Shown here: in pieces, positions 1 through 51,182 of the stretch
Layout of the letters: each line of letters opens with the position of its first letter
How positions within the stretch are numbered: position 1 is the first letter of the stretch
Source: Amoebophrya sp. A120
Taxonomy: Eukaryota > Protista > Dinoflagellata
Direction of reading: 5' to 3'
Assembly (NCBI GenBank): GCA_905178155.1
Contig: CAJINV010000014.1
Coordinates: forward strand, 1,629,984-1,693,983
DNA length: 64,000 bases
Translations under genes and position numbers: made by a program
Notes under the pieces: model-generated
Told to the model about the DNA's origin: nothing
The model's input: only the letters and a program-made list of their open reading frames with translations
The model's database searches: none

Positions 1-423
1 ACGAATTTTGGAACTCCGTTGTATGAATTTTGGAAATCCGAAGTACCGAATTCAAAAAAAAAAATACCGAATTCAAAAAACATCACCATGACTCTCGCAA
101 AAACCGAAGATGATTTTTGATGAACTCGAAGGTGATTTTTGATGAACTTGGTCATGATTATTTTGATGAACCCTAAAACCTAAAGTCATGATCCACCTTC
201 CGAAAGCCATGATCCACCTTCCTGAAAGCGCCCTACGACATATCACCGATCACTTGAGTTCCAAAATTAGTACATCTGAATTCTTTGCACCGATACATAC
301 CTTGGTGACCGACAACGACCTTTCTTCTCACCACGACCGACGACGCAAATTCCGCGGAATTGGTCAAATCTGACCAATTTGAATAGTTGTGGTTTAAAGC
401 AAAACCACAACTATTCGCATTTT
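1..423 (+). repeat. Left inverted repeat (possibly truncated by the window edge)
   Basis: Matches the reverse complement of 15764-16186. Sub-repeats: TACCGAATTCAAAAAA x2, TGATTTTTGATGAACT x2 (111-126, 133-148) plus a variant, CATGATCCACCTTCC x2 (187-201, 208-222). Confidence 0.97.
381..416 (+). other. Putative YR crossover site (lox/FRT-like), left copy
   Basis: GAATAGTTGTGGTTT-AAAGCA-AAACCACAACTATTC: perfect 15-bp inverted arms and an asymmetric 6-bp spacer, at the inner edge of the repeat. Function is inferred. Confidence 0.6.
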
Positions 424-1843
424 TGATCCTCTTTTACATTTTCAACTACCAACAGTACCAGTGGCAGTGACACCTTAAAACCAAAATAACAAGAGAAACC
501 AAATCAAGATGTAGCGGTCGCCCGTACTCAACTCCCACGCTAAGGTTGAAGCGCGTTCGCATTGTGTGGACATGATTAGACGACGAAGGCAGACAGCAAA
601 AATCGGCGCGGGGCTACTGCTACAGGTTATGCGTTTGCTCTTTTTTACTTTTGTTTTCCTTCTCCATTCCCATCTGCTTTTGCATTTGCAAACACAGCTA
701 TTAATATTGTGATACTTTTGATATTGCAATTGCATTTGCAACTGAATTTGAAATTGATGAGAGCACCATCTCCGCCTCGCTGCAAAGTTTTTTTTGTACT
801 GATCAAGATCATCGGGATCGACTACTGCTACTACTACTTCTTCATGCCTCAATATGTTGATCAAAACGAAGCTCATGACTTATGACCAACGCAATCAGGT
901 ACTCCTGCATGGCGCGCGTTCTGGATGGTGCAGCTGGTGTTGGTCGTGGTGTACTTGGGCCAAATCTTCGGCGCAGTTGAACTATCTCGATGGCATGACT
1001 CGCTTCCGCTGGGATGTTGCCACGGTGTTTGCGCGTTTACTTTTCAGATGTCGGGAAGTGAGGTGGATGATGATGTAGATGAGGCGTTGTTGTCTTTAGC
1101 ACAACCTTGACGCCAAGAGTTTTTTGTTTGATGTGAGTGAGAGCACCGCCACACACTGCGACGTGGTGGTGATAGATTGCAGCGCGTGCGCGACGGCTAC
1201 CACTATATTTATTAGACTTTGAGCGCTAGCATGATCCTCTCCCTTAGACCATGGGCCCGTGAGGTATTGCTAGCGTGGTCGCGTTTATCGGTTTTTATTT
1301 GATCTCGATTTGCGTCATAGTCTTGGAGCTGTGCTGGTGTGGCTGGGGCGAGAGAGGATTTTTTGAGTGAGAGTCTGAGTCAGCGTCTACGTGTACGTCG
1401 AGCAGCATGATATTATTTCCCGTAAGCACAGCCGGAAGATGTTGTGCCGAGAGAACAGAGGATGAGGGAAGAGTCACACTGGCCTCGCACGTGTTGGCTA
1501 ATGTCGCGCGAGCTGCCGCTGCAGAGCGCAGCAGAAGAGAGCAGTAAAATCAACACAGCCAAGGAGTTGCTGGCGTCAGCTTTATGAGCGGGTAGTTTTT
1601 TAGTTGCGGCTGGTGATGTAGATTTTGGATCTTATGACGATGAGCGTGTTGCTGTGTTTGAGTGTGAGAGGAACGTGAAGATTGAGAGGTTATGCTGCCC
1701 TCAGCTGGACGCTTCGTCTCGTCAGTACTCGGCGTCTTTTCGTCGTCTACGTTTAGGCTTATGATGAACATGAGCATCAACACCAAGACCAATAGCGAGA
1801 ACTAAACGTAAAAGAATAAGCGTCAATATGTAAACGCACTACC

Positions 1844-4800
1844 ATGCCGCCCAAGAAAAAAGTCAAGCCGCCGGAGCGGCTTCTCCCTCCTGATTCTCCG
1901 AGTGCAGAAGAGGGCAACTTCCACAACGACATGGAGGAGCAGCAAAACCAAGGCGGAACTCAAATGCGAAACAACAACATCAACAACATGAGTCTGAACC
2001 TGAACATCGAGCCCAACATTCCTAACCACAACGACAACCAGAACCAGAGCCAGTACATGGCTGCGCGTTACACTTGTTGCAAACTTTTAAAAGGAGCAAA
2101 AAAATTAGCGGACGTGCTGGAGGTGCTTGACTTCGCGCAGCGTGACCTCCTCGGCTTCGAGGTCGGCGCATCTTCTTCGTCGAAGTTTCACAATTGGCAC
2201 AGGACCGCACCCCTTCCGAAAGACGAGTCCCTCAGGAAAGCGTTCGTGCGCGAGTACGGCCATTCGGAAAGTAAGGGGTCGCGCAGTGAAGTTATCCGGA
2301 TGGGGTTTTTGGAGTTGAAGAAGCGGTACGACGTTTCCCGATTGCAGCTCGCGGAGTACATCGGACTCGGCCCCGACGGCATGGTCCACGTAGAGGATGA
2401 ACTGGAGGACATCGCAGGGGAGGCTGCGGTGCGGCGAAGCATTCGAGAGGAATGGAAGGAGCACTGTCGCTGGTCATATTATGACTCGCTAAAGACAGTG
2501 GAGGAGAAGGTAAAATACATCGAGTACGTGTTGGGCTGCTCGCGGGCAACTAGCGCGAAGAAGGTATTTTTTCTAACTCTATGAGAATTGTGCTTGTGGT
2601 TGTGCATAAGCATTAGCATTAAGCATTTCAATGCCGGTGCCGGTTACTATTGTATTAGTATTTTTTTTCCATTTCCTTTTCCATTTCCATATTCTAATTC
2701 TTTTTTGCTCATGACGATCGCCATGAGGAACAGGAGCACGAACCTGTCATGCAAGTATGAGTGCGCTAAGCTGGTAGTGCCCCTCAAGCTCATGCCAGCA
2801 CAGCATGGCTCAAAACCAGAGCCCGAGCATTGACCTACGCGTACATCTTCAACATCCTTAGACTTTACGCATCCTGAGGCGATGACTCGGGCTCGCTGAA
2901 GAGCGACGAATGAGTCTGATTCTGCCGCACATCTTGCGCTGCCTTTTGGCGATGGCTCTTGCAGGCCCACACTTGGCCTGAGAGTTAGACCCAGAGATAA
3001 GCATAGAGCTCCGAGGGGCTGGGGATGGGGTCTGGCAGTGTAACTGCGCTGCCAGTCATAGATATGCAGGCCTGCATGACTCTGGTTGCGCTCCTATGGT
3101 GGATGAAACTTGAAACACAAAACGGAACGCCATCAACATCAACTTGACTCGTAATCTGAAACCTCCTCCCTAATGATAATCAGGTGGCCCTGTTGCAGCA
3201 CCTTTTCGGCTGCGCTGACGTCTACAACCACCTATCTCGATTCGATAATGCCAAGCCAACCGCCGGAGAAACGACTTCCTCGAAGAGGAGAAAAGTAGTG
3301 CAGGTAGAAAATAATGTTTCCAAGGCGAAGATCGAGGACGAGGTGGAAAAGAATAAAAAAGCGAAGGCCAAGGACCAGGATGGGCATCGAAAATTTGCCG
3401 AGCGGGCGGAGGAGAAGATGCTGCGTGCGGTCAAACTGGAAGCAAGGGATGACTTCAGCTACATCATGGGTACTACCTTATCTCCTAGATGCTCATGTTA
3501 GTTTGTATCTCACTTCGCCGCTAGTGCCGCCGTGCTACCACATCAAGGCGAGGCATGCCTTTTGTCACACATTGCGTCGCGACCCACGTATTGATACTGC
3601 GCAGTGAGGGTGCCGGTCCGCCAAAAAAGACTGGGCGTGAGTGCTCAAGTCCACGTCCACGCCCGGGTCCGCCGCTATTGCATTAGAAATATTTTGTATT
3701 GCAGCTGTGCATGCCGATGCCCATACAAATGCATATGCATGATGTCGCCTGCACTTGGATGTATGAGTGGAAGATGGTGGTGCGGTAGTGGTGGCAAAGT
3801 TGCTGGCGGTTTATTGTGTTGTAGATGCAGAGTTTGACTTTCGCTTTGGTTCTGATGCTTTCGGTGATGCAAATCTTCAACCACATCTTAGCCTACTCCT
3901 CCGCTATACGAAAAAAAAATCTATTTCGCGCTCGCAGGTGACAGCGAGGCACGCGCAGAAAGCTCCACCACGCGGATGCATCAGTTTCTGAATCCGGGGC
4001 TACAGATGGGTGCAGCGGCTAACACATCCTCATCCAGCAGTAGCAGCACTCCCTTTCCGGCCCGCCCCGCGCGGTTGCGTCCAATAGTATTTTGCCGGAT
4101 CGGGCCAGACAATACAAACTTTCGCTCCGGCGACCTGATGAGTCTAGATCTGATGATGGCGCGGGGAGTTGCGAACCCAAAGACGAAAAAGCGGACAGTG
4201 ATGTTCCGCGGCTTCGCTCCGCCGTCGATAACAAGTGATCTGGGATGGAAGCAGGTTTTAGATCGTGTGTACCTGATGACCGGCTCGCTAGTGCCGCTGC
4301 CGGGAAGCACAACCAATCAGTTTCCCGGTGACCCCGTGTCAGTCATCAATGCGATAATCGACGCTGGCCCCGACATTTTGAAGTGCTTCAGAATGTTGAA
4401 GTACTACAGTGCCGCCTGCAATCAAATACGGAAGCAGCAGATAGCGGAAGGGCGGGAGGAAGTGTACGTGGAAACGTACGTGAGTGTCTATCTCTGCATA
4501 GCGCACCAATATCATTTGTTGACCGGTGAGCTGATCAAACAGCTTGAGCAGATATACCCGGGCTTCATCGAGGGCGTCCATGCAATCGAGAAATGCGCGA
4601 CGCTCTGGTGGAATGAAAAGGGCATCAAGATCAGCAGGACGCTGGAACACCGACGGATGTCGTTGCAGCCGTCGCTGGAGAGCATGTTGGCGCAAAAGGA
4701 TCAAGTGCAAGCAGCACTGAAGGAGTTGCGCCTGGACAAGCGGAAGGACAGTACCCGCGCGACAGCTGAAAAAGGACACAATCATGGGGAGAGTGAGGAG

Positions 4801-7134
4801 TTTTGGAAGGTGTGTGAACTAGCAGCAAAAGCAGTGCAGCCCGTGCATCACGCATCCGCCCGCGTGATGCGCGACGTCCAGGTCTCCACCAGCAACATGG
4901 AGCTCAGCCAGATGTTCCGCTTGCGGGCACGCGGAACAACAAGTAGTGATCAAAAACAACTCCTCCAGAGCTTTATCCTCTCGTACCCGACCGACATCCA
5001 GGGACTGAGTTTGATCTTAGTCTCGTGCTTCCGCTTACCGCGCCGCGAAGTCCAGTTGTACGTGTTTCCGTGGTTACTGAACTGGTTCACTTCTCCTCTG
5101 CACATAAAACCAGTTGCGAAAGCCCTTCTTGCAGCTGACCTCTCCCAGCAGTGCGAATTTTTGAAGTTCATAATCGACAACTTCGGCTCTGATTTGGTTG
5201 TGGCCGCGAACACCGGCGTTATCACGGACGAGCTGTACCCGGTTATAGCGGGGAACAATGCAACAAACAGTCCGAACGCAGTCGTGCAAGAGAGCTACCA
5301 CAGCACAACGCAGAACCACCGCAACAACGCGCCGGCAATGCAGCAGTTCCGTAGCGGCGTGCGGACATGCCTTACCCGCACAGAACTGCCCGATTACGAG
5401 GAATACAAAAGTCAGATCGAGCGACGGCATGAGCAGTATGACGCGCGGCGCAACACCTGTAAGGAGTACTGGGCGGGCGAGGGGGAAAAAGATTTTTTGT
5501 TTCACGAACCTCCAGAAGGCAGTCTCCACCCGTACCTGGAAGCAGCAGCAATTGAATTCAAACGGCACCCGGATAAGAAGGAGATCAAGAAATCCGTCCG
5601 CAGTGCCAGGAACTTCAAGCTCGGCGTTCCGTTTTTTACCAATCGCGAGGAAGGCTGTGTTGATCCAGCCATTGAAGACGTTTTTGAGGAGGAGGCGCCG
5701 TCGATGTACAAGTACTTCCTCGGCGAAAAAACAACAATGTTCGACCTGGATTACTTGCAACTCGGCGACCTGGTGCAGAAGAAGATACCAGTTGCGTCGT
5801 TGGATACAAGCAGAAAGAAAGAAAAAGCGAAAGAGAAGGAGGGCTGGGATGATGTGCGGTTCGTGTACCAGCAGCGTGACATGAAGGGGAACTTGCAGAA
5901 GTGTTTTCCGATCGCGTTTACGTATGAAGGACCACAGCCCGGAAGTGCGGAATGGTTGAAGAAGTATCCGGACCCGACGTTGCGTCCGGGAGTGACAACT
6001 GTGTCTGGATTCAGCGTCGGGCGTACGACCACCGTAGCAGCAGCCCGTGCTTCTGGGCGCGCCGAGCAGCAGCAGTCAGGCGGTGCAGGAGCAAGTGGCT
6101 CTGCAGCAGCGAAAAACGGAAAGAATGGGGTTAAGAAAAAAGCACAGGGCTCGGCTCCAGGTGCTAGCGCGACCGCGCAGTCTGCGTCGAGCTCCAGTTC
6201 GGCCGCGAAGAAGGCCGCATCAGGTACAGGAGCGGACATTCCGACCAGACTACTTTACCCCGACCTCGAGGCATACGCCTTGTCGATGGACGCCACATTG
6301 ATCCGCAGTGTGAGCCATTGGTCTACGCGCAGCAACGGCGATGCGCTCGCCATGACGTCGTACCTGACGATGAGGTCCAACAAGGTGGCTCGCGCGTACT
6401 GGTACAGTAACCACGTGGTGCTCTTTGTGCAGAAAGGCGACTGGGTCGAGAAGCGTGTCCAGCGCGCAAAACTCATCTCCGCGAAAGCCATCGCTGACGT
6501 GGATGTCATGAAGATCAATCTGCGAAAGCAGCACAAAAAGGGAGAAAGAGAAACCCGGGAAGATGCTTGGTTGTCGTACAATCAAGACATCGCTGTTCCA
6601 GAACGGCGGTACAGTGAAAAGATCGGCCGCGTGTATTTTATCCTGCGACCGGAGAACGGGACGTGGCACGCGCGGATCAAGCCGGACGATTTAACGGACG
6701 ACCCGCTGATGTTGAGCTTGCCGATGGTGAACGAGGAGTGGGATGAGGAAGTTGAAGAGGAGATGGAGGAGCCGGTTGTTGTGGATGCTGATCTGGATGA
6801 GGCGGGACTCGCTGCAAGCCCAAGGGCTAAAGCGAAGGCGCAGGCGAAGAAAAAAGCAAAGCACTTTGGTGCGACTTGCAGCGGGCGGGTGATCAGCCAG
6901 GTAAGCGTGAAGGAAGCCCGGGTGCGACTAGTGAAGAAGGTTTGCAAGCGGTTGTTCGAAACCTACCCGAAGGGAAAGGTAACGGATGAGGATGAGAACC
7001 GTGCGTGGGCGCACGTGATCCCATACGTGCGATCAACGCGGAAGTACGAGAAGCTTGCGGAAGATTCTTCTAGCGATGAAGATGAGCGGGAGTATCATGA
7101 AGAAGATCGCGCGAGACAGGTGCGAGCGGCGTAG
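1844..7134 (+). CDS. Element gene A, hypothetical ~1400-aa protein; exons 1844-2563, 3184-3469, 3938-7134
   Basis: Three ORF-track segments join in frame through two GT-AG introns (phase 0: AAG|gtat...atcag|GTG; phase 1: ATGG|gtac...cgcag|GTGAC). Basic NLS-like start MPPKKK. No family recognised. Confidence 0.75.
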
Positions 7135-8001
7135 GGTGTTGTTTGTATGCCGTAAGATAGTGACAAATATACGTCTGCAACAGTTTGTCTATGTCCTATC
7201 ATTTCTGTTTGTATACAGTCCAAGACTACCTTGAAGAACTACCCCTTCTACATGTGTAACATGAAAATGAATCCATCCCATAGTGTATAGCCTTCTATGT
7301 GGCACGTAGCTGCGTTTGTATTCACAGCTTTGATTGATATCTAGATTAGCGCTTTGTATTTGTGTCTGTGCTCAGCCTTAGCCTTGTATGATTGTGCTGA
7401 GGAAATAGAAAACAAAATATGAAAAAGATGATCATCAGCTTCAACCTAGAAGCTGGAGCAGTGCTCCTGTGTTTACGTGCGGCACCTGCACTACGCGTTT
7501 GCTGTCGGTAATTTGCAAGTGTATGGCTGCGTCAGCAAATGCAAGTGTGAGAGAATGAGGTAGCGTTGTGATCAGCTGCACTCAGTCGAGAAATTGAAGA
7601 AAACTACAACACGAAGCTCGCCCCCGCAGTTCGGAAATAGCGACAAATGTATTTGCACCCAACCCATTTCACTTTGTTAATCAGCATTGAAATTCGTATG
7701 ATCTGCAGTGAGAGAAGTGAAGTTCAAAGCTCCCCCTGATGCTTTCTGGCAGACAATCTGCAGTGAAAAGCCCATCCGTGAAAAAGAAAAATGCCCAGGA
7801 TTTCAATACAAGCTCGTCCCCAAATCAGGAGAAATTCCCCTCGTGATCACTTCCCAGATCCTGCAGCACAGCCTTCTTTTCCTCTAGGTTCATCTCGAAA
7901 TTGCACAAGAAATACAAGCACATCATCAGTAAATTCAACAAAATCATGAAGAAATACACAATGATCACAACGAAAAAATGATAACTTTTCATTGAAGAAT
8001 A

Positions 8002-8202
8002 GTGAAAATTTACTTGATTTTGGCAATGTCAGAAATCCGCGAAATCGAAACTTTCTACTTTCTATCAAATATTCTTGACTTTTCCTTGATTTTTCTATTT
8101 TGCATGATGTGATTTCTAGAAAATCAAAGGAAAATCAAAGGAAAAATCGAAAGTTTCGATTTCGTTGATTTTTGCATCATCAAAAACAACTTGAATTCTT
8201 CA
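8002..8202. repeat. AT-rich imperfect palindrome at the element midpoint
   Basis: Perfect 16-bp arms CGAAATCGAAACTTTC (8040-8055) and GAAAGTTTCGATTTCG (8149-8164), with further imperfect pairing inside and outside; centre ~8102. Confidence 0.8.
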
Positions 8203-8307
8203 TATTTTTCCTGTAAATCATCATCTTTTCTTTGTTGAATTTTCCCAAACTACAGGTCGTGTGACAGTTGAGAGAGTAGTTTTCGAACCTCGCATTCCAA
8301 ACAAAAA

Positions 8308-10178
8308 ATGACGCAACCCACTCATCACGCTGATGGTGGTGTCCTGCGCCAACAGCTGGACGACATGATCAACCTCATGGAAAATGTGCCTACGCAGGCC
8401 GAAGTTGCTCAAATGCAACGGAACTGGCGCGAGGGAAACGTCACGAAAGGTACTAATGATTGTGATGCTTTTTTCTACATTGCGTCTATCGAAACACAAT
8501 GCTTTCGCTATAGTAGTAATGTATTTTCAATGTAAAATAAGCTTTTTTCTATAGAAATTTTGTTGCAAAAGTCGCGTTCTTGTATAGAAACTCATGGCAA
8601 TTCATTGTATTTTTCTTCAAAACAGCCGCATACATGCGCTTTTGTCATCGGTTTCGTGACCATCGTTTTGCCGAGGCGTACCGGATGCTGGGGTCGATGC
8701 TCGCCACCTTCACCGAATCGGAATTCAACGTCCTCCGATCGGTGCAGCATAAAAATTTTTTGCTGCAGGCCATGCGGGAAGGATCGTTTATTTTCCGGCA
8801 GGGTATTGAGACTACTTTTCCCAAATGCTTTTACACACTCGAATGCGTAATCGTTCCGGTTGCTAGTCCGCTGTTCCCCGCCGGTGGCTGCTTCATCTTC
8901 ACTTCCTCCCGCCCCCGTGTGCTGGCTTGGAAGACAATGCAGTACAACATCCCCGGCAGCACCATCTACGGCAGACGGTGGCTGTTTCCGGGCGACCAGT
9001 TTGCCGTCTCGTTCCAGCGGGTTCCGAAGAAATCTTGGTGTCCGCAGCGCATGCGCAATGCTGCGAAGCCGCGGCGAAAGGCGCGATCCTTCATCGACAC
9101 CTTGGAGTTGCTGACCAAGCAGTTCCCGATGGAGAACATCTTCGGCCCGCTTGAGACGAAGCCTAACTCCCCGGCTGCTGAAAACGAGCGCCTGCTGCGG
9201 AGCATGAGCACCATGTTGGAGGTGCAGCTGTCTGCTGCCATCGGTGTTCCTCCTTCTTCCATCACCGCGCAAAAGGGATTGCAGTACAAGAGCAACATGG
9301 GCGTCAAGAACAACATGGGCGTGCACCGCGCCCATCTGATCATGGTGAAAAGCCTAGCTCGCGACTTGATTCTTGGGCGGCATCGCTGCGTCCCCCGGGA
9401 ACAGCGGGATAGTTACGAAGCCCTAGCAACCGGAATATTTCCTGATGTAGCAGAAGAAAAATTTGACTGGATTCCAGTGCATCCCGATACCTTCAAAAAA
9501 ACAGCTGTCGTCGCGGTTTCGACGTCCAAGGGTTTGGAGGTGATTTCGGGTTGGCATCAGTGCTCCGCCGCGAAAGAGTTCTGTGTGGAGAACAGGGCTG
9601 CGTACGAACAATTGGGCTTTGCGTACTAATACAAATATTTTTTTTATACATCTTCGTATACAAAAACAAATTCGCATACAAATACAAATACTTTTTTTCA
9701 AGCAGAACCAGACACAAGTGCACTCTCATGCAAAGAGTAACTTTGGTGTGCAAGCACAAGCAGCATGTACATGCAGAGTAAGAATATGAATAGCAACCAC
9801 CTACAACAACATCAACATCAACATATACATCACAGAGCGGAGATTTTGCTGGAAGATTTTTACCAGTACCAAGAATTGGTCCAGACCTACGTGAGGCTCG
9901 CAAACGAGGGCACTGCCCATACCCTCAGTACCACGTTTGCCGAAAAGTGCCAGACCGTGTACAACCAGGTGCCGAGACAGTTTGAAGTTAATGATTTTTA
10001 TCGACAGGCTGAGCGCTATACTAATGATGACATTGGGCAATTTGTGAACCGATTTGCAGGAGGGCAGCGTGCCACGCTGGACCCGAACGATATCGAAATG
10101 TTTACTGAGCGGCCCACTATCGGGCCCGCGACAGCGCACGCAGAACAACTTATGAGAAACATGATGCGTCGCTTCTAG
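8308..10178 (+). CDS. Element gene B, hypothetical ~493-aa protein; exons 8308-8449, 8626-9622, 9836-10178
   Basis: Both introns begin GTACTAAT and end ACAG; phases 1 and 2 join ORFs 8308, 8580 and 9765 in frame. No family recognised. Confidence 0.75.
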
Positions 10179-10548
10179 GCTGTCTCAATGTCATCTGCAG
10201 CAACGAAGTAGAGACAAGCGCAACTATTCCAAGAAGCAACTTCATCTTTCACTACAGAGCTTACAGCCTCGCATTCAGAATTATCACTGTCAATACGATG
10301 TAGCGACGACGTAGATTGCGAGCACTTTGATTTGATTATGATAATGCTTATGATTTTGACTACAGTTACATTTACAGTAGCGTTTACGTAGATACTTCTG
10401 ATGGAACAGTCGCTGTCGCTTTCCAAACTTTTATTTTAGTTTGCGTATTCCTTGGGGGGCAAAGTCAAAGACATCACAACCACAACAAAGTCCTTCTGTG
10501 ATAATACAAGAACGAACGATGCCAAAGATGGTGATGAAATAGACATTG

Positions 10549-11451
10549 TTATAGCTTCAGCTTTGAAGCGGCTTCCTTTTGAAAGCTGAAGTCATTTGCG
10601 ATGTATCTTGACAATGTCTCCAGGCTGCAGTGCCCCGTAAGTGCCATAATTGTCGCAAGGGGAACGCCCTTGTTGCAAAGGTCCGTTGTTAGCGACCTTC
10701 GTGGGGTATGCGAAGTAATAAGCTCACGCGGGCAAGATTTTTTACATCGTGGCGCGAAGTCTTTTCTGACTGCGCGAATTTTTTTTTCGAAGTTCTCGTA
10801 CCCGAACGAGAACACCGGATCGTCGTCGCTCTTTTGCTTTTGAAGAAGGGCAATCATCTCCTGCAGAAACTGCTTTGTTTCTCCAGTGGGGGATATTGCG
10901 ACGTTCTTCAGCTTGCCGCGCGAGCTGTCTTGTGTGGCCAGCTTGGAGTTCCCCACTCTTACTCGATCGATCGCGAGGTCGCCTCGCGTTATCGATCGAA
11001 TATCCATGCCGCGCCTACCTGTCAAGCACTGCAGCACCCAACACAATCGAAAGTACTTCCCCGCGTTTGCTTTTCTCCCCGTGCTCTCCTGTAGTGCCTT
11101 GCCGAAGCGGGCGCAGTCCTCGATCTCAAGCGAGCCTGATCGCTCTTCCCCGTCTGATAGCAGAACGTCTTTCTCCTTCTTCTTGTGGGTAACCGACTTG
11201 ACCACGTGTTTCGTCGGTCGGCTCGCTTTCCCTACTTTTGCTTTCGCCTTCGGACTGGCCTTCCCTGTTTGTAGTGCCTTTCGCGAGCGAAGCGGTAAAG
11301 AGGCCTTCTTCATTGCACGGTCACGGAGGCGCATTGCTGTAAAATAAAACTTCTTGTTTGTCCTACCACTCCCACGCGCGCTTTTCGATTTCAGCTTCCG
11401 CTTCGCGACAGGTCGTGCGCGACTTTGGGGTTGTGCCTTTCGGGTTGGCAT
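10549..11451 (-). CDS. Tyrosine recombinase (phage integrase family), ~300 aa, intronless
   Basis: Catalytic motifs in order: LTGRRGMDI (Arg), NSK (candidate Lys), HTPRRS (HxxR), GVPLATIMALTGH (His), SLETLSRY (Tyr). Probable ATG at 11451 (MPTRKAQ); Lys/Arg-rich N-terminus. Confidence 0.93.
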   Translation of the reverse strand: MPTRKAQPQSRARPVAKRKLKSKSARGSGRTNKKFYFTAMRLRDRAMKKASLPLRSRKALQTGKASPKAKAKVGKASRPTKHVVKSVTHKKKEKDVLLSDGEERSGSLEIEDCARFGKALQESTGRKANAGKYFRLCWVLQCLTGRRGMDIRSITRGDLAIDRVRVGNSKLATQDSSRGKLKNVAISPTGETKQFLQEMIALLQKQKSDDDPVFSFGYENFEKKIRAVRKDFAPRCKKSCPRELITSHTPRRSLTTDLCNKGVPLATIMALTGHCSLETLSRYIANDFSFQKEAASKLKL

Positions 11452-11677
11452 GTTGCTCGTGCTTCCAGCCGTGAGAAGCGAGTGGGCATTTATACTTGCT
11501 TTGATGAAGGGGAAGGTTTGGCAAAGGTCTGTGTAGTGATGTCTTTGGAAGAGCAGGAATAGTTGCGATTGTAGCTGCGCCACTACACCATCACCAATAC
11601 CCTAAACTAATTCAAACAAAACTAAAACCTTCAACACGAAAATAAAAACATAACAGTTGTGGACTGAGTATTTGGAC

Positions 11678-14425
11678 ATGAAGCGCTCGTATGGGACCAC
11701 CGGGCAGACTATGCCGTCGGAGTTTGAGTTTTTCCAGGTATGTTTTTTGTTGAATAGCAGTAGCTGTAGCACAAATAATAATTATAATAAACAAGCGACC
11801 TTTCCGTTTCCAATATGCACGTGTACTTAGATGCAGCAGTGTCTCTGAGAATTTTTTGCAAGATGGAGTCAAAATCTAAATCATGAACATGATGTTCATC
11901 TTTTACAATTATGTCTCTTCTACATCAAAAAACAGAGCCGGTGCGAGTCGTGCAAAACCGCCACGGAGCCCCAGATCATCCTGCAAGCGAAGCGCGAGTG
12001 GGGTATGGCGTCCAGCCACTGGCTAACGACGATTCGCCATCACGGCACGCAGGAGCATGAGGGAAAATACGCTTCCTTCTGCAAGTATTAAAACTAAAGT
12101 GCTTTGATTTTGCAGTACTATCTTGCGGCCCTGCGATAGACGTTTGTGTTTTTATTTGGCATAAAGCACACAAGCACAACTCTATCGCAGGCCCGACGCG
12201 ATCGAGACACCACACGGATCCGTGACTTATGTAGCGACATTTTACTGCCGGAGGTGCCACATCTTGTCCTCAGAAGAGTTTCACAAGCCGTTGTACTTGG
12301 AAAACTACTCCAGGTCCAAACTGTTTGCCGCCGGTTTGCGCTTTGTCCGTGCGACGGCGCGCGACTTGATCCTGCAGGCCTGCTTCAAGTTCATGCTGGA
12401 GTACAACATCTCCCTGACCCTGCGCCAGATCGAATCGTTGAAGGCCTTCGTGAAGATGAACCACTACCGCGACCAGGCGGCCAACCACAACGCCAACAAA
12501 CTGATGCTGCATGTCTTGTGCCAGACCGCCAAGAACGCGCTCCGCGGGCGCGTCCCGACTTTGGAGGCCGGACAGACCGGCGTCACGATCGAGGTAAAAT
12601 TACGATTAGATGTTTATGTAGATGTGAGTGTGGGTTTGAATTTGAATTTGAGTTTGTGAGTGGAGGTTAAAATGTGAGTTTGTATGTGGAAGTGAATGTG
12701 AGTCTCCGTGTGATTCTGAATTCAAAGAACACGATGATCCGCTACCGACTCTACCTCCAACTAGTGCCGTTGCATCATGATGTCCTTACGTTTTTTCATT
12801 CAGCAAGAAGATCATGATCAGCACTTGTTGTTCATGTGCGTGTTTATGTTTGAATCATAACACTATGATCACTCACAACAGACCTGCCAATCCACCGAGG
12901 ACATTGTCGTCGCCACGACCCCCGAGCAGGCCGGCTTGAAGGACTCCGACCCGAGTGCGTGGTGCTTCGGGCGACTCGAGATGTTGGAAGAGCGGCGGAT
13001 CAACAGATTCGTCAAACTCCTCGAGTCGATGATCTTTTTCCGCATCGCCACCATGAAGGGTGAGTTGGCGGGGCAGATGAATGTGATCCAGGGTTCCGGT
13101 GTGGTCACCCCCAAGATCAACCCGTCCGAAGGTCTGCGCTGCATCCTCGACGGGGACGGTTTGGGCGTGCTCGACGGATTGGCGTGCATTGTCATGGGCA
13201 AGAAGACCTCCCCGGAGGTGGCGACGATCAAGCAGGAGATCAAGACGTTCACCGAGCGGAAGGCGCAGGACAAGAAAGACATCTTGAAGAAAGCGAAGAT
13301 GGATGCGCAGGCGTTGAAGACGCAGAGTCAGCGCGCCGCGAGAGTCAACGTGGCCGTCGGGTTGGACCAGCAACTCGAAAACCTCGAGGACGAAACGCAC
13401 CGCAAGCTCGTGCAGCACGACGCGGAAGTGAAGGAGTCCACCCTGCTGATGACGGACCGGCTAAAACAGGCCGAGGAGACCAAATACTTCCAAGTGAAGT
13501 GCCGGGGACAAACGCCGACCGTACGTTTTTTAATTAGAACTTTCTGTCCGGACACGATTAATGGAAACATTGGACTCATCGTATATTCTACACATTTCGT
13601 GTTCAAGTAAATCGTCCTCAACGTAGTTTTTCTTCCCGCGTAATAGCTGTGCATGTAGTTGTAGACTTACAGATCTTCATGTTCATGTAACAGCCATCAT
13701 CTGAGAATGTATCATCGTGCTTTGCTTTGGCTTTTCAATTTTAAAATAAAACTTATCAGTTACCGGGGGAATGCCTCAGCTTGGACACCGCGTACTACAA
13801 CTGGCTGGACGAGTTGTACTACAGCTCCAAGACGGAGTGCGAAGAGCCGGACGTCAAAAAAATGATGATCATCCCCGGCCGCTCCAAGATCCACATCATT
13901 CTGAAGAACAAAAAGAAAGAAATGGATGAGTGGTTCACTAAGGTGGTCGAAAAAGAGTTTTGGGTGACCTGCAAGGCCGGTAAGAAGATCAAGAAGATCA
14001 TCTGGTTTCCCCAGGAGTTCACCATCAACGAGGGGAACATCATCATCCGCTTCAAGGTCCCGATGGCCGTCGACACGGGCTCGGACTCGAACAGCGAGGA
14101 GGAGGAGTACAACCTGCAGATGCGGGGCAATAAGAAGAAGGCGATGGACAAGTTGTTGAAGACCGGTGCGCTTTTGTACAGTACCACCGACGAGGAGGTG
14201 ATCACCGGTGCCAACGCGCAGGCAAGCAGTTCTTCTTCGTCCTCTTCCTCCTCCGGTGCCAACGCGTCTTCGTTCAACCTGCTGCCGAAGAAGCACAAGC
14301 GCAAGGAGGACGAGGGCCGGTTGTTGGACGACGACTCCGAGAATGACAAGGAGAACAAGTCCCCGAAGAACAACAACACCAAGCGCAGGAAGTCTACGGA
14401 TGATATTGATGAGAGCCTGTTGTAA
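11678..14425 (+). CDS. Element gene C, hypothetical ~638-aa protein with two CxxC motifs, coiled coil and charged tail; exons 11678-11737, 11936-12084, 12191-12593, 12882-13520, 13760-14425
   Basis: Four GT-AG introns (phases 0, 2, 0, 0) all join in frame; CESC and CRRC motifs. An in-frame acceptor at 11656 suggests a possible further upstream exon. Divergent from the YR gene. Confidence 0.72.
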
Positions 14426-14756
14426 TTGTAAAACACATCTTCATCGGTTATTCTGATCATAGTTGTGGATGTGGTTGTCGTTATGTCTCGGTCTACCTAG
14501 TCTTAGCCATAGCCACAGCTTCCTCCCTGCAGCTGATGTGCGCGAGGTTCTTCTAGTTTCTCGTATGGAAAAATAACAACTCTAATTCGAACAACAGCAA
14601 CAACGCGAAGGCGAAGCTTGTCGGTACTACAATAAGCGCTGCTACTTAAAGGAAGACAAGCAAGTTTATTTGTCACGCATCACCACCTCCTCCTTTATAT
14701 CTCCATGTTGCGCGAGAGCTACTCGTAGTTCAAGTTGCAGCGTGGAGATGATTCGT

Positions 14757-14868
14757 TTTATATCGAGCTCATGCCAAGAGGCGACGGCGAGCTCATGGTC
14801 ATGCCAAGAGGCGACGGCAATTTATATCGAGCTCTCTTTCATACAAGCTCACGCCAAGAGGTGACGGC
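14757..14868 (+). repeat. Three ~20-bp direct repeats (TCATGCCAAGAGGCGACGGC) plus TTTATATCGAGCTC x2
   Basis: Copies at 14769-14788, 14799-14818 and 14849-14868 (last with 2 mismatches). Confidence 0.85.
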
Positions 14869-15763
14869 GTGAGTTTGATTCTTCTGTCGAGCACGTCAGC
14901 ATGATTTTTTTGTTTCGCACTACCACGGACTATTTTTGGAGGATCGCGCGTCCGTCTTTAGAAATTGTTTTCTATTTCTTTTAGACAGATGATAATAGGG
15001 CGACGCTACCTCTCCTGCGGATTCGAAGGCAATGCTTCCCTTCGTTCCAAGAAACTTTTTCATCAGATAATGAATATCTTTAACATCATGCGACGTGCTC
15101 AAAGTACAAAAATAAAAATACAGAACTTTATATTTGATAAATTAATATCTACATCGAGATCTTTCTCCGCCGGTGTTCGCGCCGGTTTTCTTTTTATGAG
15201 CACTACACGTAGAGGTAATAATATTATAATTATATTTCTTATCAGACATTCGAATCACCAATTTTTATCCCGCCACTTATAGTGGTGGGCTTGACGACAC
15301 GACTTGCTTCGCGAAGCCAGCAGAGACGAAAGACTCGTCCTAGTCTCTCCTGGTCTTTGCAACTACGATTTATACCCATCCGTTGAGTGAGAGACTTGTT
15401 GTTTATCCACTGTAGTGCCCGCACGATGAAAAACGACGCTACGAAGAAGACGGCAAAACAGACGATGTAGAACAATCATCCTCCTCTTCGGTATTAGAGT
15501 TAGACTATGAATAAAAATGTATGTGCAGTGACAGGTGGTGCCTACCTGCCGTGAGAGCGCACCTGTAGGAGGCGGTTGCTGCTTTTGATTCTCAAGGAGA
15601 CGCTGTTTAACAAACCATTTGTTTTACAAACAAGAACGAGAATCCTTCTGCTGGCTTGTATAGCAGCAGACTTGTATCAACGTGTCGATGAAATTAAAAA
15701 AAACCGAATCATCACATCGGTCACTCGCGCCGTGGCATGCGAGCCTATGTTCTTTTTAGCACG

Positions 15764-16186
15764 AAAATGCGAATAGTTGTGGTTTTGCTTTAAACCACAA
15801 CTATTCAAATTGGTCAGATTTGACCAATTCCGCGGAATTTGCGTCGTCGGTCGTGGTGAGAAGAAAGGTCGTTGTCGGTCACCAAGGTATGTATCGGTGC
15901 AAAGAATTCAGATGTACTAATTTTGGAACTCAAGTGATCGGTGATATGTCGTAGGGCGCTTTCAGGAAGGTGGATCATGGCTTTCGGAAGGTGGATCATG
16001 ACTTTAGGTTTTAGGGTTCATCAAAATAATCATGACCAAGTTCATCAAAAATCACCTTCGAGTTCATCAAAAATCATCTTCGGTTTTTGCGAGAGTCATG
16101 GTGATGTTTTTTGAATTCGGTATTTTTTTTTTTGAATTCGGTACTTCGGATTTCCAAAATTCATACAACGGAGTTCCAAAATTCGT
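15764..16186 (-). repeat. Right inverted repeat
   Basis: Reverse complement of 1-423; identity ends at AAAATGC (15764) on the inner side. Confidence 0.97.
15771..15806 (-). other. Putative YR crossover site, right copy in opposite orientation
   Basis: GAATAGTTGTGGTTT-TGCTTT-AAACCACAACTATTC; the spacer is the reverse complement of the left spacer. Confidence 0.6.
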
Positions 16187-16358
16187 ACACCGAATACCTT
16201 TGCATAATCGCCAACTTAGCACTTTCTGATGTCCAGGTTTCTATATTTTGTCCCTTCATATACTATGTGGTCCACCAACATAATTCTACTTCAAACGTCG
16301 AGGTCTACTACTTCTTCACCCGTCGGAAAAGAAAACGCCGTGGAGCTGTGCTGTCGAG

Positions 16359-19300
16359 ATGAACCGGAAGACTGTTCATTTCGGCTTGCCGTTGCCCTAC
16401 TCAACCGCCCTGCTGCGGATATTGATATTTTATTCCGGTCCACGTGGGTCACCGACGTTTTTCTTGAGGAGTTCGGAGGTGTTGATAACCACACTAGCCA
16501 CTTCACCACCACTTTCCCGACGAGAAGTATTGGAAGCAACTTCAGTATTGGAAGCAACTTCGAGAATGTCGTCTGAAGACGGTTCTGAGGCTGCCACTTC
16601 AACCACGACCGGGGAGCAGCACATCACCGCAACGACCCGTGCAGCTGGCAGGCTGTTGTTAAGGGTTGAAAAAATTAAGGTTTACATCAGGGTTTTGGTT
16701 CGTTGTTTCATAGATTTCGCAGCCCCCGCCTTTGTCCCTCTTCGCACCGCCCGGCAGTTGTCCAGGTGGTGCCTTGGTTCGTATTTCGTCTGGCTGGCAA
16801 AACCAAAGCCGCCGGGCCTTCAGAGCTGAAGGCCCTTCTGCCTTGATGCCGATCCAGATTTTGTGCGAGGTGTCGCCACAATTCTGACGAGCGCACGCTG
16901 GCTGATTTGGGGGTCAGCATTTCCCTCGAGATCTAGGCTGGCATCTACGCCAGGCAAGCCGCCTCGCCTCGCGCGTTACTTGGTACGCGGAGCAGGCTGC
17001 CCGGCTTTTCTGCCTCTGGATCTCGTTCCGCAATCTTGCGGGACAACGTTCGGAGGCAGAGGTAGATCACCACCCTGGCCAGCCAAAGAGATGCGTGCCC
17101 CTGTGATGGCTGCCGCCAAAGCGGCAGGGTTTTGGTCAGGGTTTTGCTCCGAAAAGGCTCACCGCAATCGAAGCAAAAGCTTATTTTTTTCGGGAGCTTC
17201 CCCCGAGCTAATAAAATCAGTTTTTGCTTTCGCTTTGCTCTCCTTTTTGTCGCCGAAAGTGTGGAGTTGTTCTGGGCGGGTTTGTTCGCCCATATCGTGC
17301 CCAGGCAACCTGCCTGGCCTTGCAAGTTACTTGGGGCGAGTGACAGGGCGCCCGGTTGCTCTGCCTCCGGATCTCGCTCCGCAATCTTGCGGGACAACGT
17401 TCGGAGGGAGAGGTAGATCACCATCCTGGCCAGCCACAGAGATGCTTGGCTCTGAGGTGTCCGCCGTCGACCTCATCTTCAAACCAAAACAGCACAACAC
17501 CTCATCTTCAAACCATCCGGGGAGCAGCACGTCACCGCGACGACCCGTGCAGCTGGCAGGCTGTTGCAAAAGGAACCCGGACCACGGCACGCGGACGGAA
17601 TGGTTCTCGTACATAGAAGTAGAACTACATCAGATGACTACGACATCAATGCGGATGGTGCTGATGAGCCACGAAGCGGAACAAACACCAGGGGTAGTAT
17701 TAGTAACATCAACAGAGGGAGAATACGTGCGACCAGAGAAGCAAGAAGTGGAAGTGCTGCGGCTGACTCGGTGGTCTTTTTGGACGAATCTACTACTCCG
17801 CAAAAACTGCGAGGGCAGCAGCAGAGGGTGCAGGTGGTCATGGATGATCACGATCAGATCAAATATGTACTCAATTATCCTGAGCAGGAGGTATGAATTG
17901 CAAATATGTCTGGGTCTGGAAGAGCCATGCTGTTTTTGCATGACGCAGAAGGTCTGGCATGCAAGCTCTAGCATCACAGGTTTCGAGAAGCTTCCGCAAT
18001 GCCGAATCCGCATGACAAGTCCCCCGCTTTGGGGACAGAAAGTGGGCAGCTTTTGCCACCTATGCATGAGAGATTTTTCTGTGTTCGGAAATGCGCATCA
18101 CAAGTTTGTATTCTTCCAGACCCAGACATATTTGCAATGCATAGGAGGCGGAAAAAAACGATCCTCATCGCGGGCCCCCTACAACGACGACACGGACAAC
18201 GGAAACCACAAGGAGAACCCCCTCGCCCGAGATGAAAATAACGCATGCCCGGCGCGGCACTAGCAGCACTACCACCACCAGATCTCGAGCAGCCGCAGCC
18301 CAACTCGGCTTGCCCGCACCATCTCCGACTCCCGTTGTCTTGTTCGAACCCCCGCCGCCGCCAGCGCCCGGCCCCGCTCCCGCCGTGGCTCCCGGCAAAG
18401 CCGCGGGCTACGACTACAAGGGGAACGCCTTTTGCATGTGTGGTGGCGATTGGCTGAACTGCAGGGGTCCCCCCCGACACCCTTACTTTTCGCAGCACGC
18501 CGACGCTAAAGTACCCTCCGCAACTACGGTGCAGGCCTGCGGTGATGCGTGTGACGCGAAAGTGGATAACTGTGCCGCCTTTTCCTTCGCGCAGTCTCCC
18601 TTCAACACCCACTGGCAGGACACGCCATGCATTCTCTTTCTCACCGACGGAGCAATGATAGCGCGCGTGGACGACTCAAGCGTGTACATATCCATTGAAA
18701 ATATCTCTGGGTCTGGAAGACTCATCTTCCAGAACTCTTAGAGTTCGGCTTTGTCATTCTAGGTCCTCTGGCTGAAGAGCAAGTAGAGAGACACAAAAGC
18801 GTGAGCTTTTGCATGAGCAGCAAAAGCCGCCCACTTCTGGACTACGGCACTATTTTTCATTTTCGTACAGGATAGGCATAGGCATTGCGGGCCCCTCTCA
18901 ATAAAACTTGTGATGCCACAGCTCGCACCAGTTCAGGCCTTGGCTCGAGGTGATGATGCGAAGCCTGCAAGCATGTTGGCAGATCTTGACGTGACCTTCC
19001 GGACGCAGAGGTATTATTTGCGCTGGATACTAGTCCAGTGCGAACGCTGTGCACTGCTTCCGGAGGAGAGATAAGTGCTACAAAATGAACGTTGACATCA
19101 CCGTCGATAGCAACACTGCTAGTCGGTACGCCAAAGCTTCTGGATACCAAGGGCAGACTCTGCCCTATTACGTCGCCACGACTCACACCACGCTGTCGTA
19201 TCCTGCCAACTACGGTGGTTGCCACCGCCTGTGCATTGAGCAACCCGAAGTGACACACAACAAGCTTCTCGTCTCGGACATCAGCGATAACGCGATTCGC

Positions 19301-46681: not shown

Positions 46682-49600
46682 TCAATCCAAAACATCCATC
46701 ACATCCAACTCGAGCATTTCCAACTCCAACGGCCCACTTTGCACTTCTTGCAAAAACCGTCTCAACTTTAATTCCTGCTCAAGCTTTTCAACCTCCATTT
46801 CCTGTTCGTCGAGGGGCAGGTGGTCGATTGTGGTACTACGCGGTGGACCCGCGCCTGCTATACTTTCTACTTCCTGGTGCTGGTGCCCGGGGCGGGCCTG
46901 AAAAGATCCATCGTTCTTGCGCTGTTGGTCCTCGTCGTCCTGGCTGCCGCCCCCATTCTTGGTAGTGTCGCGGCCGCCCGTCTCCGTTACAACACCTGCA
47001 TGAAACAGCCCGCTTTGGTTCATCAAATCTTTCAAACTTGGACTCGTCCGTCCGTAGTCGCCATTCACCAGCTCCTTGATGTAGCACCCGGCATCCGCGT
47101 GTACCATCAGCCAGAAGGTTGTGTCGTTGACAAATTTCACGTGGGAAATGTTCAAAATCTTCTTCTCGCGGACAATGTTCGACCGCCTATGCACGACTCG
47201 AAACGGGGTTTGCTGCTTCAAGGCGATCGGAAACAGGGAAGTTTTTTGGCTGTCATAATTCCTGGGATCTTCATCTTCAATATGATTTTGGTCATGATTT
47301 TGTTGTAAAAATTTCTTCCCGAACTCTTCCTCCAAGAGATTCTTGTCCAACTTCCGACTGCTTCTGACCAGACAGCCGTAGATTTTCGTGTGTTTCTCCG
47401 CGTTTTGCTGCAAAAGTTGGACAAACTGCTTGATTATGCATCGCAAATTTGTCTGGGCCTGGATGTTAAAGGCACTCGTTTTTTTGCCATGCTAAGTCGT
47501 GCATGACTACGGGGCGGTCTTTTGTACGTACTCAAGACACGGAGGTACCACACGTTTATTTGTAGGCCTCAGTGCGAATTCGACTGTATTTCGCATCACA
47601 CATCACTAACGAGGAGCTTCGAGCATGACAAAAAATGAACCAATCGTGGCTGTTGTCGTCGTGCTTCACCTCACATGTTGCTGTTGCATGACAAGAATTC
47701 CAGACCCAGACATAATTTTTGCAATTCATATTGGTCGTCGGTTTGAAATCGTGCACCGCAATGTGCTGCTCTTCCTTCACCAATTCCTCCTCCGTTTTCA
47801 GTTTGTGGAACAAGGTTTTGTGAGTTGCCGGTAGGTTCGCATACCAGTGCCAATGGTACAGGTTGTAGTCATATGGATTGTAAAAGTGTCTGGGTCTGGA
47901 AGAATGCAACTTGTGATGCTGCATTTGGATTCCAAAAAAATCTGTATTGCATGAGTAGCAAAAGGAGTATAATTCTTGCTACAAGGATAGGGCATTTGTC
48001 ATGCGAAATAGGCATCAAGATGCCCTCAAAAAATATGTGATGCTAGGGCGTGCATCACAGACATCACGGCTCATGCAAGACGTGCATCACAAGTCTCAGA
48101 ATCTTCCAGACCCAGACATTTTTACATTTGATAAGTCATCCTTCTCGGTTTTCTTGCTCTTCGCCAGCTCCACCGCTTGCACCATGAAGTGTGTTGTTGT
48201 TCTTGATGGTAGTTGTACGGAAAAATCTTGTTCAACAAGGCCTGTTGAAGAAGGCTGCCCCAAGCAGGTCAACATTTGCATCGGTCTTTTCCGCGCGTCA
48301 AAGATTTCCAACACAAACGGCCGGCCATTTTTCCCCAACATTCGCACGTCCACGTCCTCGCGGCCCGCGGCGTGGAATTTTATCTGAGAATTGGCTGCTT
48401 GTTTTCCTTTTTCTCCAGGAATTATTCCGAACCTTTCCGCGACAGGCGCAATGATCAAGTCTTCCACCGAGTACTTGGCTTTCATCTGGTCTTTCTCTTC
48501 CTCATTCGACGCGCCGCCCCCGCCTCCGAGGTGCCAGGGCGTTTGACTCAATTCCCGACTGTACTTGTTATAGCGCCCCTGGTAGAAGAGCGAGGATCGC
48601 TTGACGGAGATGATCTTGGGCTTCAAGACGATAGAGGCATTCATTTTAGCATTAGCTGGTCGTGCGGTTTTCGTTTTTGATTCAAATTGAGCATCTCCTT
48701 CTTCTTCTTCTTCTTCTAATAGGTTGATGTCTTGATTTGCAGTTCTGTTCGCCGGGTCCTTGACGTACCGGTAGATTTCTTGACACAAGTCCCGGAACAG
48801 GACTTCTTGGGTGTCAAAATTCTCATACTTCAAACGCAGCTTCGCGATTTTCGTTTCTCCAGCAGTTGTGGTAGCAGCCTGGTGCTGCAGGTGTTCTGCT
48901 TCTGGTGCATCAGCTCCTTCGGAGATCAGGATTTTAGCGTTGTTTTTTCCACCCTCCTGGTTCGAGTCGCTTGCCTTCCCTCGTCGCTTGCCTTCACTCA
49001 TGCCTTTCCCTTTCCCTTTCCTCCTTCGCTTCGCCGCCCGAGCGCCGGACTTAGTCGAGTTCAAAATTGTCTCGATTTTGCTGAGCGCGAGGAGTGCGTG
49101 CTCTGACATCTCGAAGCCTAACTTGACTTCCAATTTACCTTGTCGTTGCTCTAGTTCGGCTTGCAATTGTAATTGCTGTGCGAGTGAAGAGCGTTTGTCA
49201 TCAGCACCATCTTTGTCGGCTGCGGCTCCTGCTGCTGGCGCTGGGGGTTTGACAGCGTTGTTGTGGTTATTAGAAGCCACTTGTTGCCGCTGCTGGTCCG
49301 TTACTTGGATCACGACGTTTTCGACTCTGACCTGAGAAAAATGCGTTCTACTGCTTGATGTTGCGTATCCGGGCCTCTTTTGATTCTTTGCAGCCCCAGC
49401 CCCTGCCCCGCCGGCAATGATTGTACTAGATGCAGCAAAAGAGGTACTAGAGGTCGTCGGGGCATCAACCTCTTGGTCAGCAGCTGTCGCAAGAGAAAGC
49501 GCTCCTTCTATGCAAGACTTCGTTGCGTCGGTCAAGTTGTCCATTAGGTTCCGCGTCGTCATGGCTGTCGTGTGATTTGTTCCAGCCTTGTTGGCAACAT

Positions 49601-50105
49601 CCTTGTCATCCAGTAGGACAGGTTCGTTCAACACGAGTTCCTGCCAGAGCAACAGTGGGTGGGGTTCCGGCGTTGTCAACAGGACTATCGGTTCGTACTG
49701 GACATCTTGCTGTGCCCCCTCGGAACAAAGAAGTGCAGCAGAGCTCGAAGAGGCACTGCTTGTTGTTCCGGTTGAACTAGTAGCGACTGGGAACAACGTC
49801 GCCGTGACTGGATTTTTAATTGTGACCGAAGTTGTCGAGGTGAACCCTTCGTCTTGGTTGAGGCGGGTGGTCAAGGGCTGCAGGAAGTCACTGGTAGTCG
49901 TGTCGTTGAGGATGCCTTCGACGGTGACTACAACGCTGCTGGTGGAGTTTGTGGGATTCAAATTTGAATTGGAAAAATTCGACCCCTGCGCGACCTTGTG
50001 GTCCGGTTCCTCTCCGACGGCATTCGTGGCAGCTGCCGGAAGTACAGGCACTACTGCTGGTGCAATTGGCGTCGTCATCTTCTCGGCTGGCTGCGGAGGG
50101 GGCAT
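46682..50105 (-). CDS. PUS10: tRNA pseudouridine synthase Pus10, three exons separated by two introners
   Basis: GRYNKYSRELSQTPW, KFHAAGREDVDVRMLG..GRPFVLEI, QQTPFRVVHRR, AGCYIKELVNGDYGRTSPSL, LELDVMDV. Confidence 0.95.
47435..47730. mobile_element. Introner, family A, TSD TTGAT/TTGGT
   Basis: TATGCATCGCAAATTTGTCTGGG ... CCCAGACATAATTTTTGCAATTCATA; removal restores the PUS10 frame; no GT-AG at its ends. Confidence 0.85.
47872..48133. mobile_element. Introner, family A, TSD AGTCA
   Basis: TIR core TGTCTGGGTCTGGAAGA / TCTTCCAGACCCAGACA; perfect 5-bp TSD; removal restores the PUS10 frame; no GT-AG at its ends. Confidence 0.88.
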
Positions 50106-51182
50106 GGTTTCTTTCTGTAGAGACTGAATGTAGTGGTCGCAGCTGCAGCGAGCAGCGGGCTGAAATCTGTTGTACTAGACGAGGACAGAAATACCTCGAG
50201 GAAAAATACGTAGTTGATGAAACAGAAGCCGAAAAACACTGGGAATGTCGCCGACCTGTGAGGAACAAAAATAAAAGCTAGCTTGAGGCTGGAGCAACAA
50301 CATTCAAGATGTTTGAATCATCTGTCATGCTCATACATCAGGTGGAATTATTGTGATCTGGCAAAAGCTAGAGCTTGAATCTCATCGACATGCTGCATCT
50401 TCTGTGTCTACAAAGTAAATATCATCAGCGATGGGGATCTGCTGAACCTCGGCTAATGCGCTAGATATAGATCTTTTGTTGCGCGACCACAGGAGGGTTC
50501 AGACCTCAGATCTCCATGTAGGATCACAAGAACTTGCTCTTCATCTCCTTGTCGAGATCCAAGATCCACTTATTTGCTTTTCTGAAGCCTAGCACTCCGT
50601 TGTACTTGAGTACTCGATCTTCGTCCACTGTAGCAAAAAAATGCGATGAGTTTCCAGCTTGGCGGACGCTGCTCTCGACCACTGCCACGGAAGGACCACT
50701 GTCATGGGTGGAAACAAATATCCAGGGGCTACTAGATTCATACATAAATCAGAATCAGGTTGAGGTTGGGAACCGCCGACGTGGCATTCCTTTTTGTTGA
50801 TTTCTTTTTTCTCGTAGGTACATCTACGCTCGCTGGTCAAAGACGTTTAGTAAACTGCGAGGACTGCGTGCTCAAAGTTTCTTTTTCATCAGACGATAGT
50901 TTACACTAGTCACCACGACAAAAAATCGCTTCGGCTTTTTTTCGATTCGTCTCTGCGACTGCGGCACCGCATGATCACAAGGAACGACCTTGCAGCGTTC
51001 CGTTCAATACTTAGCAAAAGATAAGAATGGTCATCAAAACTTCAAGCGCGCTACGCACAAAATTTGTAGCGAACAACATTTCATCATTATGGACTTGATT
51101 CTATCTTCGAACATGGAATTGAATCTTCATTTATCAAAAACTACGCCTCCTTCAACATTTTAATTTTTTCAACTTTTTCCCC

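Follow-up and report, generated by a model that had tools for sequence, protein, structure and literature searches.

A hAT-like transposon of Amoebophrya with a tyrosine recombinase gene and a candidate recombinase site at the inner edge of each terminal inverted repeat

Structure and gene content of the element

As shown in Table 1, the window (the whole 64-kb stretch of DNA that was analysed) opens within an element that carries a hAT-like transposase gene, a tyrosine recombinase (YR) gene and three further ORFs or genes between long terminal inverted repeats (TIRs). The element is about 16.3 kb in size, chromosomal and single-copy. Its interior (394–15793) was recovered as one contig in both X1 and X2, which are runs of public contigs from one sample that may be the source of the window. 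In X1, the depth of the interior was 41, compared with 40–44 for the flanking contigs and 79 for the TIR contig (15764–16260); the element is single-copy because the interior depth matches the flank depth. The outer 74 bp of the left TIR probably lie before the start of the window. The perfect TIRs and the perfect target-site duplication suggest that the insertion was recent. The X1 contigs break at the 497-bp TIR and none of them spans unique flank, TIR and interior, so the orientation of the interior is not readable from the contigs. Host genes for Pus10 and tubulin cofactor C, at 46682–50174 and 57952–58701, confirmed that the window is part of a eukaryotic nuclear chromosome.

Table 1. Features of the element, with positions in the window
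Feature	Position	Strand	Evidence and remarks
Left TIR, inner 423 of 497 bp	1..423	+	100% inverted match to 15764-16186; 497-nt TIR contig at twice single-copy depth
Two small palindromes on the outer side of the left site, possible accessory sites	348..379	.	Mirrored at 15808-15839
Left candidate YR crossover site, 15+6+15	381..416	+	Sequence; matched by five other contigs without further TIR similarity
Multi-exon hAT-like DDE transposase gene	1844..7134	+	Homologous to P0005 and P0159; exon limits predicted, first exon linked by eye only
331-aa ORF, probably with an upstream exon from 8309	8634..9629	+	No Pfam or usable atlas match
137-aa ORF, convergent with the YR gene	9765..10178	+	No significant Pfam match
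Lone half-site, downstream of the YR gene	10215..10229	-	12/15 match to arm; identical over its outer 9 bp
YR of 300 aa, with a catalytic domain behind ~104 basic, non-conserved N-terminal aa	10549..11451	-	PF00589, E 7e-11
Lone half-site, ~106 bp before the start codon of the YR gene	11557..11571	+	Arm match
Multi-exon gene, divergent from the YR gene	11678..14425	+	Exon 11933-12079 matches P0159; exon structure predicted
Right TIR, 497 bp	15764..16260	-	497-nt contig; subterminal direct repeats of 11-15 bp, in twos or threes, ~21-24 bp apart
Right candidate YR crossover site, opposite in orientation to the left one	15771..15806	-	Sequence
8-bp target-site duplication TACTATGT	16261..16268	+	Reverse complement of the same 8 bp opens the other flank of the TIR contig

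The main exon ORF of the transposase gene, 3976–7134 on the plus strand, likely encodes a DDE transposase, judging from its sequence; upstream exons were placed near 1844–2560 and 3181–3470. Its relatives are P0005 from Amoebophrya AT5.2 and P0159 from EukProt. The D (IGPD), D (DAG/DCG) and CxxH motifs were found in all three sequences and the E motif in two of the three. The motif names D-D-CxxH-RW-E follow Hermes. The RW motif was present in two of the three sequences, and the present element has RR: at 4654–4656, an R stands in place of the W found in both relatives. The transposase of the present copy may be impaired, because a conserved W is replaced. The atlas neighbours of the transposase were mostly hAT families (0.87–0.89), and eight of ten family matches were concordant, which we treat as a lead only. 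A Pfam scan of the ORF gave no match, and nothing significant came up when the PDB was searched by sequence with the alignment of the transposase. The structural model had a pLDDT of 41; Hermes appeared at Foldseek ranks 13, 19 and 32, none of them significant, and VIA was uninformative. We call the transposase hAT-like because of the 8-bp duplication together with the motifs and the atlas neighbours. P0159 also has a long C-terminal extension at about residues 1525–1600, which has no Pfam match and may belong to a fused gene model; it contains a GNHR motif that recalls ParB/sulfiredoxin-like domains.

In the alignment of the YR with its relatives, the catalytic set RKHRHY was intact (R147, K170, H248, R251, H274 and Y283). 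All six catalytic residues were found here and in 9 of the 13 aligned sequences; the other four comprised two truncated records, one Y-to-C variant and one H-to-W variant. The close family is small, with 12 of 1.84 billion representatives reaching E 1e-10. By sequence comparison, the closest relatives of the YR are from Amoebophrya, with six from Amoebophrya sp. AT5.2 (one of two in one look-up and five of ten in another), so that a syndinian dinoflagellate is the likely host. The N-terminal ~104 aa contain 33% K/R and are unconserved, and the homologs carry 0–137 aa in this region. No core-binding domain was recognisable N-terminal to the catalytic domain in a sequence test across the family alignment, and a simple YR of the Cre/Xer type was rejected on this ground. 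The core-binding domain is what YRs generally bind their site with, according to the relevant passage of PMC8138268. The catalytic box matched Cre weakly (E ~1e-4), and the single-sequence fold had a pLDDT of 35, too low for use. The first-pass annotation had seen in this YR a possible new Cre-like tool, an idea that is weakened because the family has just a catalytic domain, preceded by a basic tail that varies. No second YR gene was found at 80% identity among the X1 contigs matching 1–16680, and metagenome scans with the YR and a scan of viral contigs yielded no related locus.

Exon 11933–12079 of the multi-exon gene matched the C-terminal half of P0159 (E 9e-6). P0159 also contains the transposase homolog, and the transposase and the 11678–14425 gene are probably linked in this relative, because both match the same record. 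No Pfam match to pPolB, capsid or packaging ATPase genes was obtained in 30 interior frames scanned of 96 listed, and no relative was found in viral contigs. The interior genes were uncovered in RNA runs X4, X5 and X7, which says nothing on their expression.

The candidate recombinase site and its recurrence

In the candidate YR site at 381–416, the core AAAGCA separates a 15-bp arm from its perfect reverse complement, and the second copy, at 15771–15806, is the exact reverse complement of the whole site. The first-pass annotation had described these perfect arms around an AAAGCA spacer and their inverted copy, and had stated that identity between the TIRs stops 7 bp inward of the site. Both observations were confirmed, the latter by an alignment identical at 423 of 423 positions (1–423 against 15764–16186, inverted). 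The core is asymmetric and not self-complementary. YR sites have arms of 11–13 bp and a core of 6–8 bp in the description given in PMC3212892, and the site has this geometry of inverted arms around a 6–8 bp asymmetric core, with 15-bp arms slightly above the usual length. On its outer side, the left site is adjoined by palindromes at 348–361 (7+0+7) and 358–379 (9+4+9).

Perfect arms of at least 15 bp occurred in 0 of 300 block-wise shuffles of the 64-kb window when spacers of 4–8 were allowed and perfect arms were counted; the longest arms per shuffle were 7–14 bp. The two site copies count as one event and are not independent, because both sit within one TIR of 100% identity. Another, longer perfect palindrome lies in the window at 56492–56536 (22+1+22), and long hairpins are therefore not rare in this repeat-rich genome. 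The TIR itself is also partly palindromic, as a nested 34-bp inverted repeat (79%) was found within it at 15898–15931 and 16171–16204 (fold z -4.9), loosely like the TIRs of the Paramecium elements Sardine and Thon.

Two lone half-sites lie on either side of the YR gene (Table 1). They were rejected as full sites since the partner arm is absent at 6-bp spacing. When the interior was shuffled 1000 times in a post hoc test, two or more additional exact 9-bp cores turned up in 5 of the shuffles. The half-site at 11557–11571 might conceivably be an autoregulatory operator of the YR gene.

At 80% identity, 11 X1 contigs were matched to 1–16680, two of which were not among the matches listed. Three of the 11 were the element with its flank and one was a flank repeat. 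Among the eight non-self contigs, five matched at the site only (four listed and one inferred). The four listed contigs match just 376–426, with 2, 8, 4 (plus 2 gaps) and 5 differences. The fifth is implied by a joint of 416 to 15771, whose depth makes up what is missing from the total of 615.3 at position 394. By depth, about 14 further copies of the site are present in X1, which is a rough estimate. Three multi-copy site contigs end 1–2 nt past the site edge, a single-copy contig of 7,831 nt starts at the site, as the interior of the element does, and in one contig two sites are linked as an inverted pair. In at least one site variant, indels fall at 394 and 399, within the core or close to it, and a site variant was also present in run X7, which comes from another study. 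In a 119-nt X1 contig matching 376–412, the terminal 8 bp of a site arm recur 27 nt upstream of the matched site, which suggests two sites close together.

The site is thus kept across contigs in which the neighbouring TIR DNA differs. From these matches, we infer that the site marks the boundary between repeat and unique DNA in several related elements with differing outer TIRs. A relaxed site pattern gave 11 matches in viral contigs; none was 15+6+15 on inspection, and they were taken as unrelated.

Comparison with known systems

According to the relevant part of PMC3464196, Sardine and Thon of Paramecium, like Tec1 and Tec2 of Euplotes, have long TIRs and encode both a YR and a DDE transposase of the Tc1 type. 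The present element resembles them in being a DNA transposon of an alveolate and in its long TIRs, its YR, its likely DDE transposase and its additional ORFs (compared with the descriptions in PMC3464196 and PMC3212892). A likely DDE transposase and a YR were found here between long TIRs, but the IS630/Tc1 transposase and TA duplication of the ciliate elements were not; in their place are a hAT-like transposase and an 8-bp duplication. The ciliate elements are ~6.7 kb in size, compared with 16.3 kb here, and the host relatives are syndinian dinoflagellates rather than ciliates. Sardine has two motifs per palindromic TIR and a YR of ~410 aa, whereas the present element has one site at the inner TIR edge and a YR of 300 aa without a conserved N-domain. 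The element is a variant of the Tec/Sardine/Thon design with a hAT-like transposase, placed outside the Tec group by transposase type and duplication. In how it works, it resembles these elements and possibly Flp/FRT.

Read by eye in Text S1 of PMC3464196, the TIRs of Sardine and Thon each contain a 17+6+17 arm-core-arm motif. It is in register and its arms agree at 15 of 17 positions; the outer bases of the Sardine core are able to pair too. The relevant passages of PMC3464196 term these motifs palindromic subsequences and make no connection between them and the YR; target sites or a role like that of Flp may be treated in Doak et al. 2003.

With hAT elements such as Hermes and Ac, the element shares the 8-bp target-site duplication, subterminal repeats and probably the D-D-CxxH-RW-E order (with RR for RW), and its atlas neighbours are mostly hAT families. 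It differs from them in its long perfect TIRs, its YR, several cargo genes and the lack of a Pfam hAT match. With the 2-micron Flp/FRT system, it shares a YR site in each of two long inverted repeats, a layout in which inversion matters solely when coupled to replication. However, the 2-micron exists as a free circle that has an origin and partition genes of its own, whereas the present element is chromosomal and encodes a transposase, and no replication origin was identified in it. Flp differs in its N-terminal domain and in a core of 8 bp. The site resembles loxP in its perfect arms and asymmetric core, but Cre sites are 13+8+13 rather than 15+6+15, and Cre has a core-binding domain while the present YR family shows none. 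Cryptons are likewise eukaryotic DNA elements encoding a YR; they are without TIRs and have terminal direct repeats of 4–6 bp in the account given in PMC3212892, and a Crypton identity was ruled out by the 497-bp TIRs, the 8-bp duplication and the DDE-type ORF. No YR-bearing hAT element, and no YR element in Amoebophrya, was reported in the literature searched, including the portions covered of PMC12130899, PMC7789003 and PMC6431247; the words 'recombinase' and 'hAT' are absent from the main text of PMC7789003.

Proposed role of the recombinase and surroundings of the element

The 36-bp site is probably the target of the element's own YR. This view is supported indirectly by the YR-site geometry, the six catalytic residues, the position of the site at repeat edges and the motifs of Sardine and Thon. 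The first-pass annotation had reached the same view of the target, which gains indirect support from these points and from the recurrence of the site in five contigs. The element is not YR-only but a hAT-like cut-and-paste transposon. The first-pass annotation had also proposed that the YR flips the ~15.3-kb interior or resolves replication intermediates at the site. Recombination between the two cores was computed, and the product was the exact reverse complement of the element. Inversion alone is thus not a function, as flipping yields the same element reversed, and phase variation by inversion was rejected for the same reason. Since inversion is silent within the element, the benefit must be replication-coupled or intermolecular.

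We favour replication-coupled copy gain of the Flp type, mediated by the YR at the inner-TIR sites, with a probability of about 0.45. The hAT-like transposase would cut and paste the element at the outer TIR ends. The YR would probably bind one monomer per arm and exchange strands across the 6-bp core. If the YR does use the site, the chances are slightly better than even that the selected reaction takes place between one replicated and one unreplicated site, as with Flp; the fork would be turned round and the interior copied again, either within the chromosome or on an excised circle. The lone half-sites by the YR gene might also let the YR limit its own expression. Recombination of replicated with unreplicated lox DNA leads to re-copying in yeast and CHO chromosomes, and this is the principle of 2-micron amplification, in the relevant part of PMC3167607. 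The copy-gain role is favoured because a cut-and-paste element profits from extra copies and because an inverted pair in long repeats fits it. Against copy gain, the element is single-copy, with an interior depth of 41 compared with 40–44 in the flanks and no sign of amplification in this sample, no recombination product was observed among the contigs, which break at the TIR, and the YR, lacking a recognisable core-binding domain, may need a binding partner. Further points against this explanation are the 22-bp-arm palindrome elsewhere in the window and the R that replaces the conserved W of the transposase.

The same site evidence would apply if the YR served resolution, recombining equivalent sites of two copies and so taking apart dimeric excised circles, tandem copies or the fusions that faulty transposition of a long element produces. 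This role has been proposed for the Tec YRs, in the relevant passage of PMC3212892, and the single copy number would suit a housekeeping function. We nevertheless consider it unlikely. One site per element suffices for resolution, as in Tn3-type res, whereas here a symmetric inverted pair occupies both TIR edges; moreover, we know of no hAT transposase that produces cointegrates, these enzymes being cut-and-paste. The site might instead be a palindrome unrelated to the YR. It would then be bound by a host factor, by the transposase or by a different protein of the element, or else form a hairpin that serves as an origin, insulator or terminator. The missing core-binding domain, the richness of the genome in inverted repeats and three further ORFs whose products could bind a palindrome leave this reading some weight, and we rate it as a minority view. 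Typical subterminal direct repeats already lie further out in the TIR and are absent from the other site-bearing contigs, the arm-core-arm design recurs in unrelated Tc1-type elements whose common feature is a YR, and the half-sites flank the YR gene itself, all of which argue against a role apart from the YR.

The recurrence of the site bears on another reading, in which the site is a module junction. Elements whose outer TIRs differ would trade the interiors bounded by the site through the action of the YR, a cassette exchange by which cargo and ends would evolve separately. Site variants edge several repeats that share nothing else with the TIR at 80%, and repeat contigs of 4–6x depth end at the site, so that several different interiors may share one end. 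However, YRs need matching cores, and the indels at 394 and 399 of at least one variant lie within the core or close to it; nor did the contigs show any chimeric element, and we regard such swapping as distinctly improbable. Least credible is a telomere resolvase that makes hairpin ends of a linear replicon at the site. A long palindrome inside long inverted repeats and an enzyme of the YR superfamily would suit it, but hairpin formation by TelN/ResT requires a symmetric centre and the core AAAGCA is not self-complementary. The element is also found integrated, next to an 8-bp duplication and with the depth of a single copy, and Pfam detected no polymerase or capsid gene in the interior frames scanned.

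Why some eukaryotic cut-and-paste transposons carry a YR has been a standing question since the Tec elements. The literature covered offers no more than a probable resolution of transposition intermediates for such YRs and does not name the target. The present element makes the question directly testable, as it provides a defined enzyme, a defined 36-bp candidate substrate and a matching motif in Sardine and Thon. It extends the DDE and YR design from ciliate Tc1-type elements to a hAT-like element of a dinoflagellate relative, which suggests that the design arose repeatedly. As a tentative generalisation, which we hold possible rather than probable, large hAT-like transposons of parasitic dinoflagellates may have independently gained a 2-micron-style amplifier, with a catalytic-domain-only YR, 15+6+15 sites at the inner TIR edge and an interior that is re-replicated and possibly swapped; the Sardine/Thon motif would then be the target of the ciliate YR, and 'DDE for integration, YR for copy gain' would be recurrent in eukaryotes. 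If this is true of the Sardine/Thon motif, a set of natural YR/site pairs would result. Finally, if the ~200-aa catalytic domain alone recombines sites, several Amoebophrya paralogs would be compact eukaryote-derived recombinases, which is the least certain point.

Several minor observations concern the right end of the element and the DNA beyond it. Rfam gave nothing significant on 14400–16700. In RNA run X4, which has the same species label and is otherwise nearly without coverage of 1–19000, reads match a 75-nt stretch at 15629–15703 and have an adapter-like start and a poly(A) end. This stretch folds as a small hairpin by eye. It may represent a short RNA with a poly(A) tail, or the reads may stem from another locus and match by chance. 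Another repeat family, at a depth of ~5–15 times single copy, occupies 16600–17500, a few hundred bases from the element. At 17891–18144 lies a very high-copy element of ~250 bp with inverted ends of ~32 bp and many different flanks, which is MITE- or introner-like.
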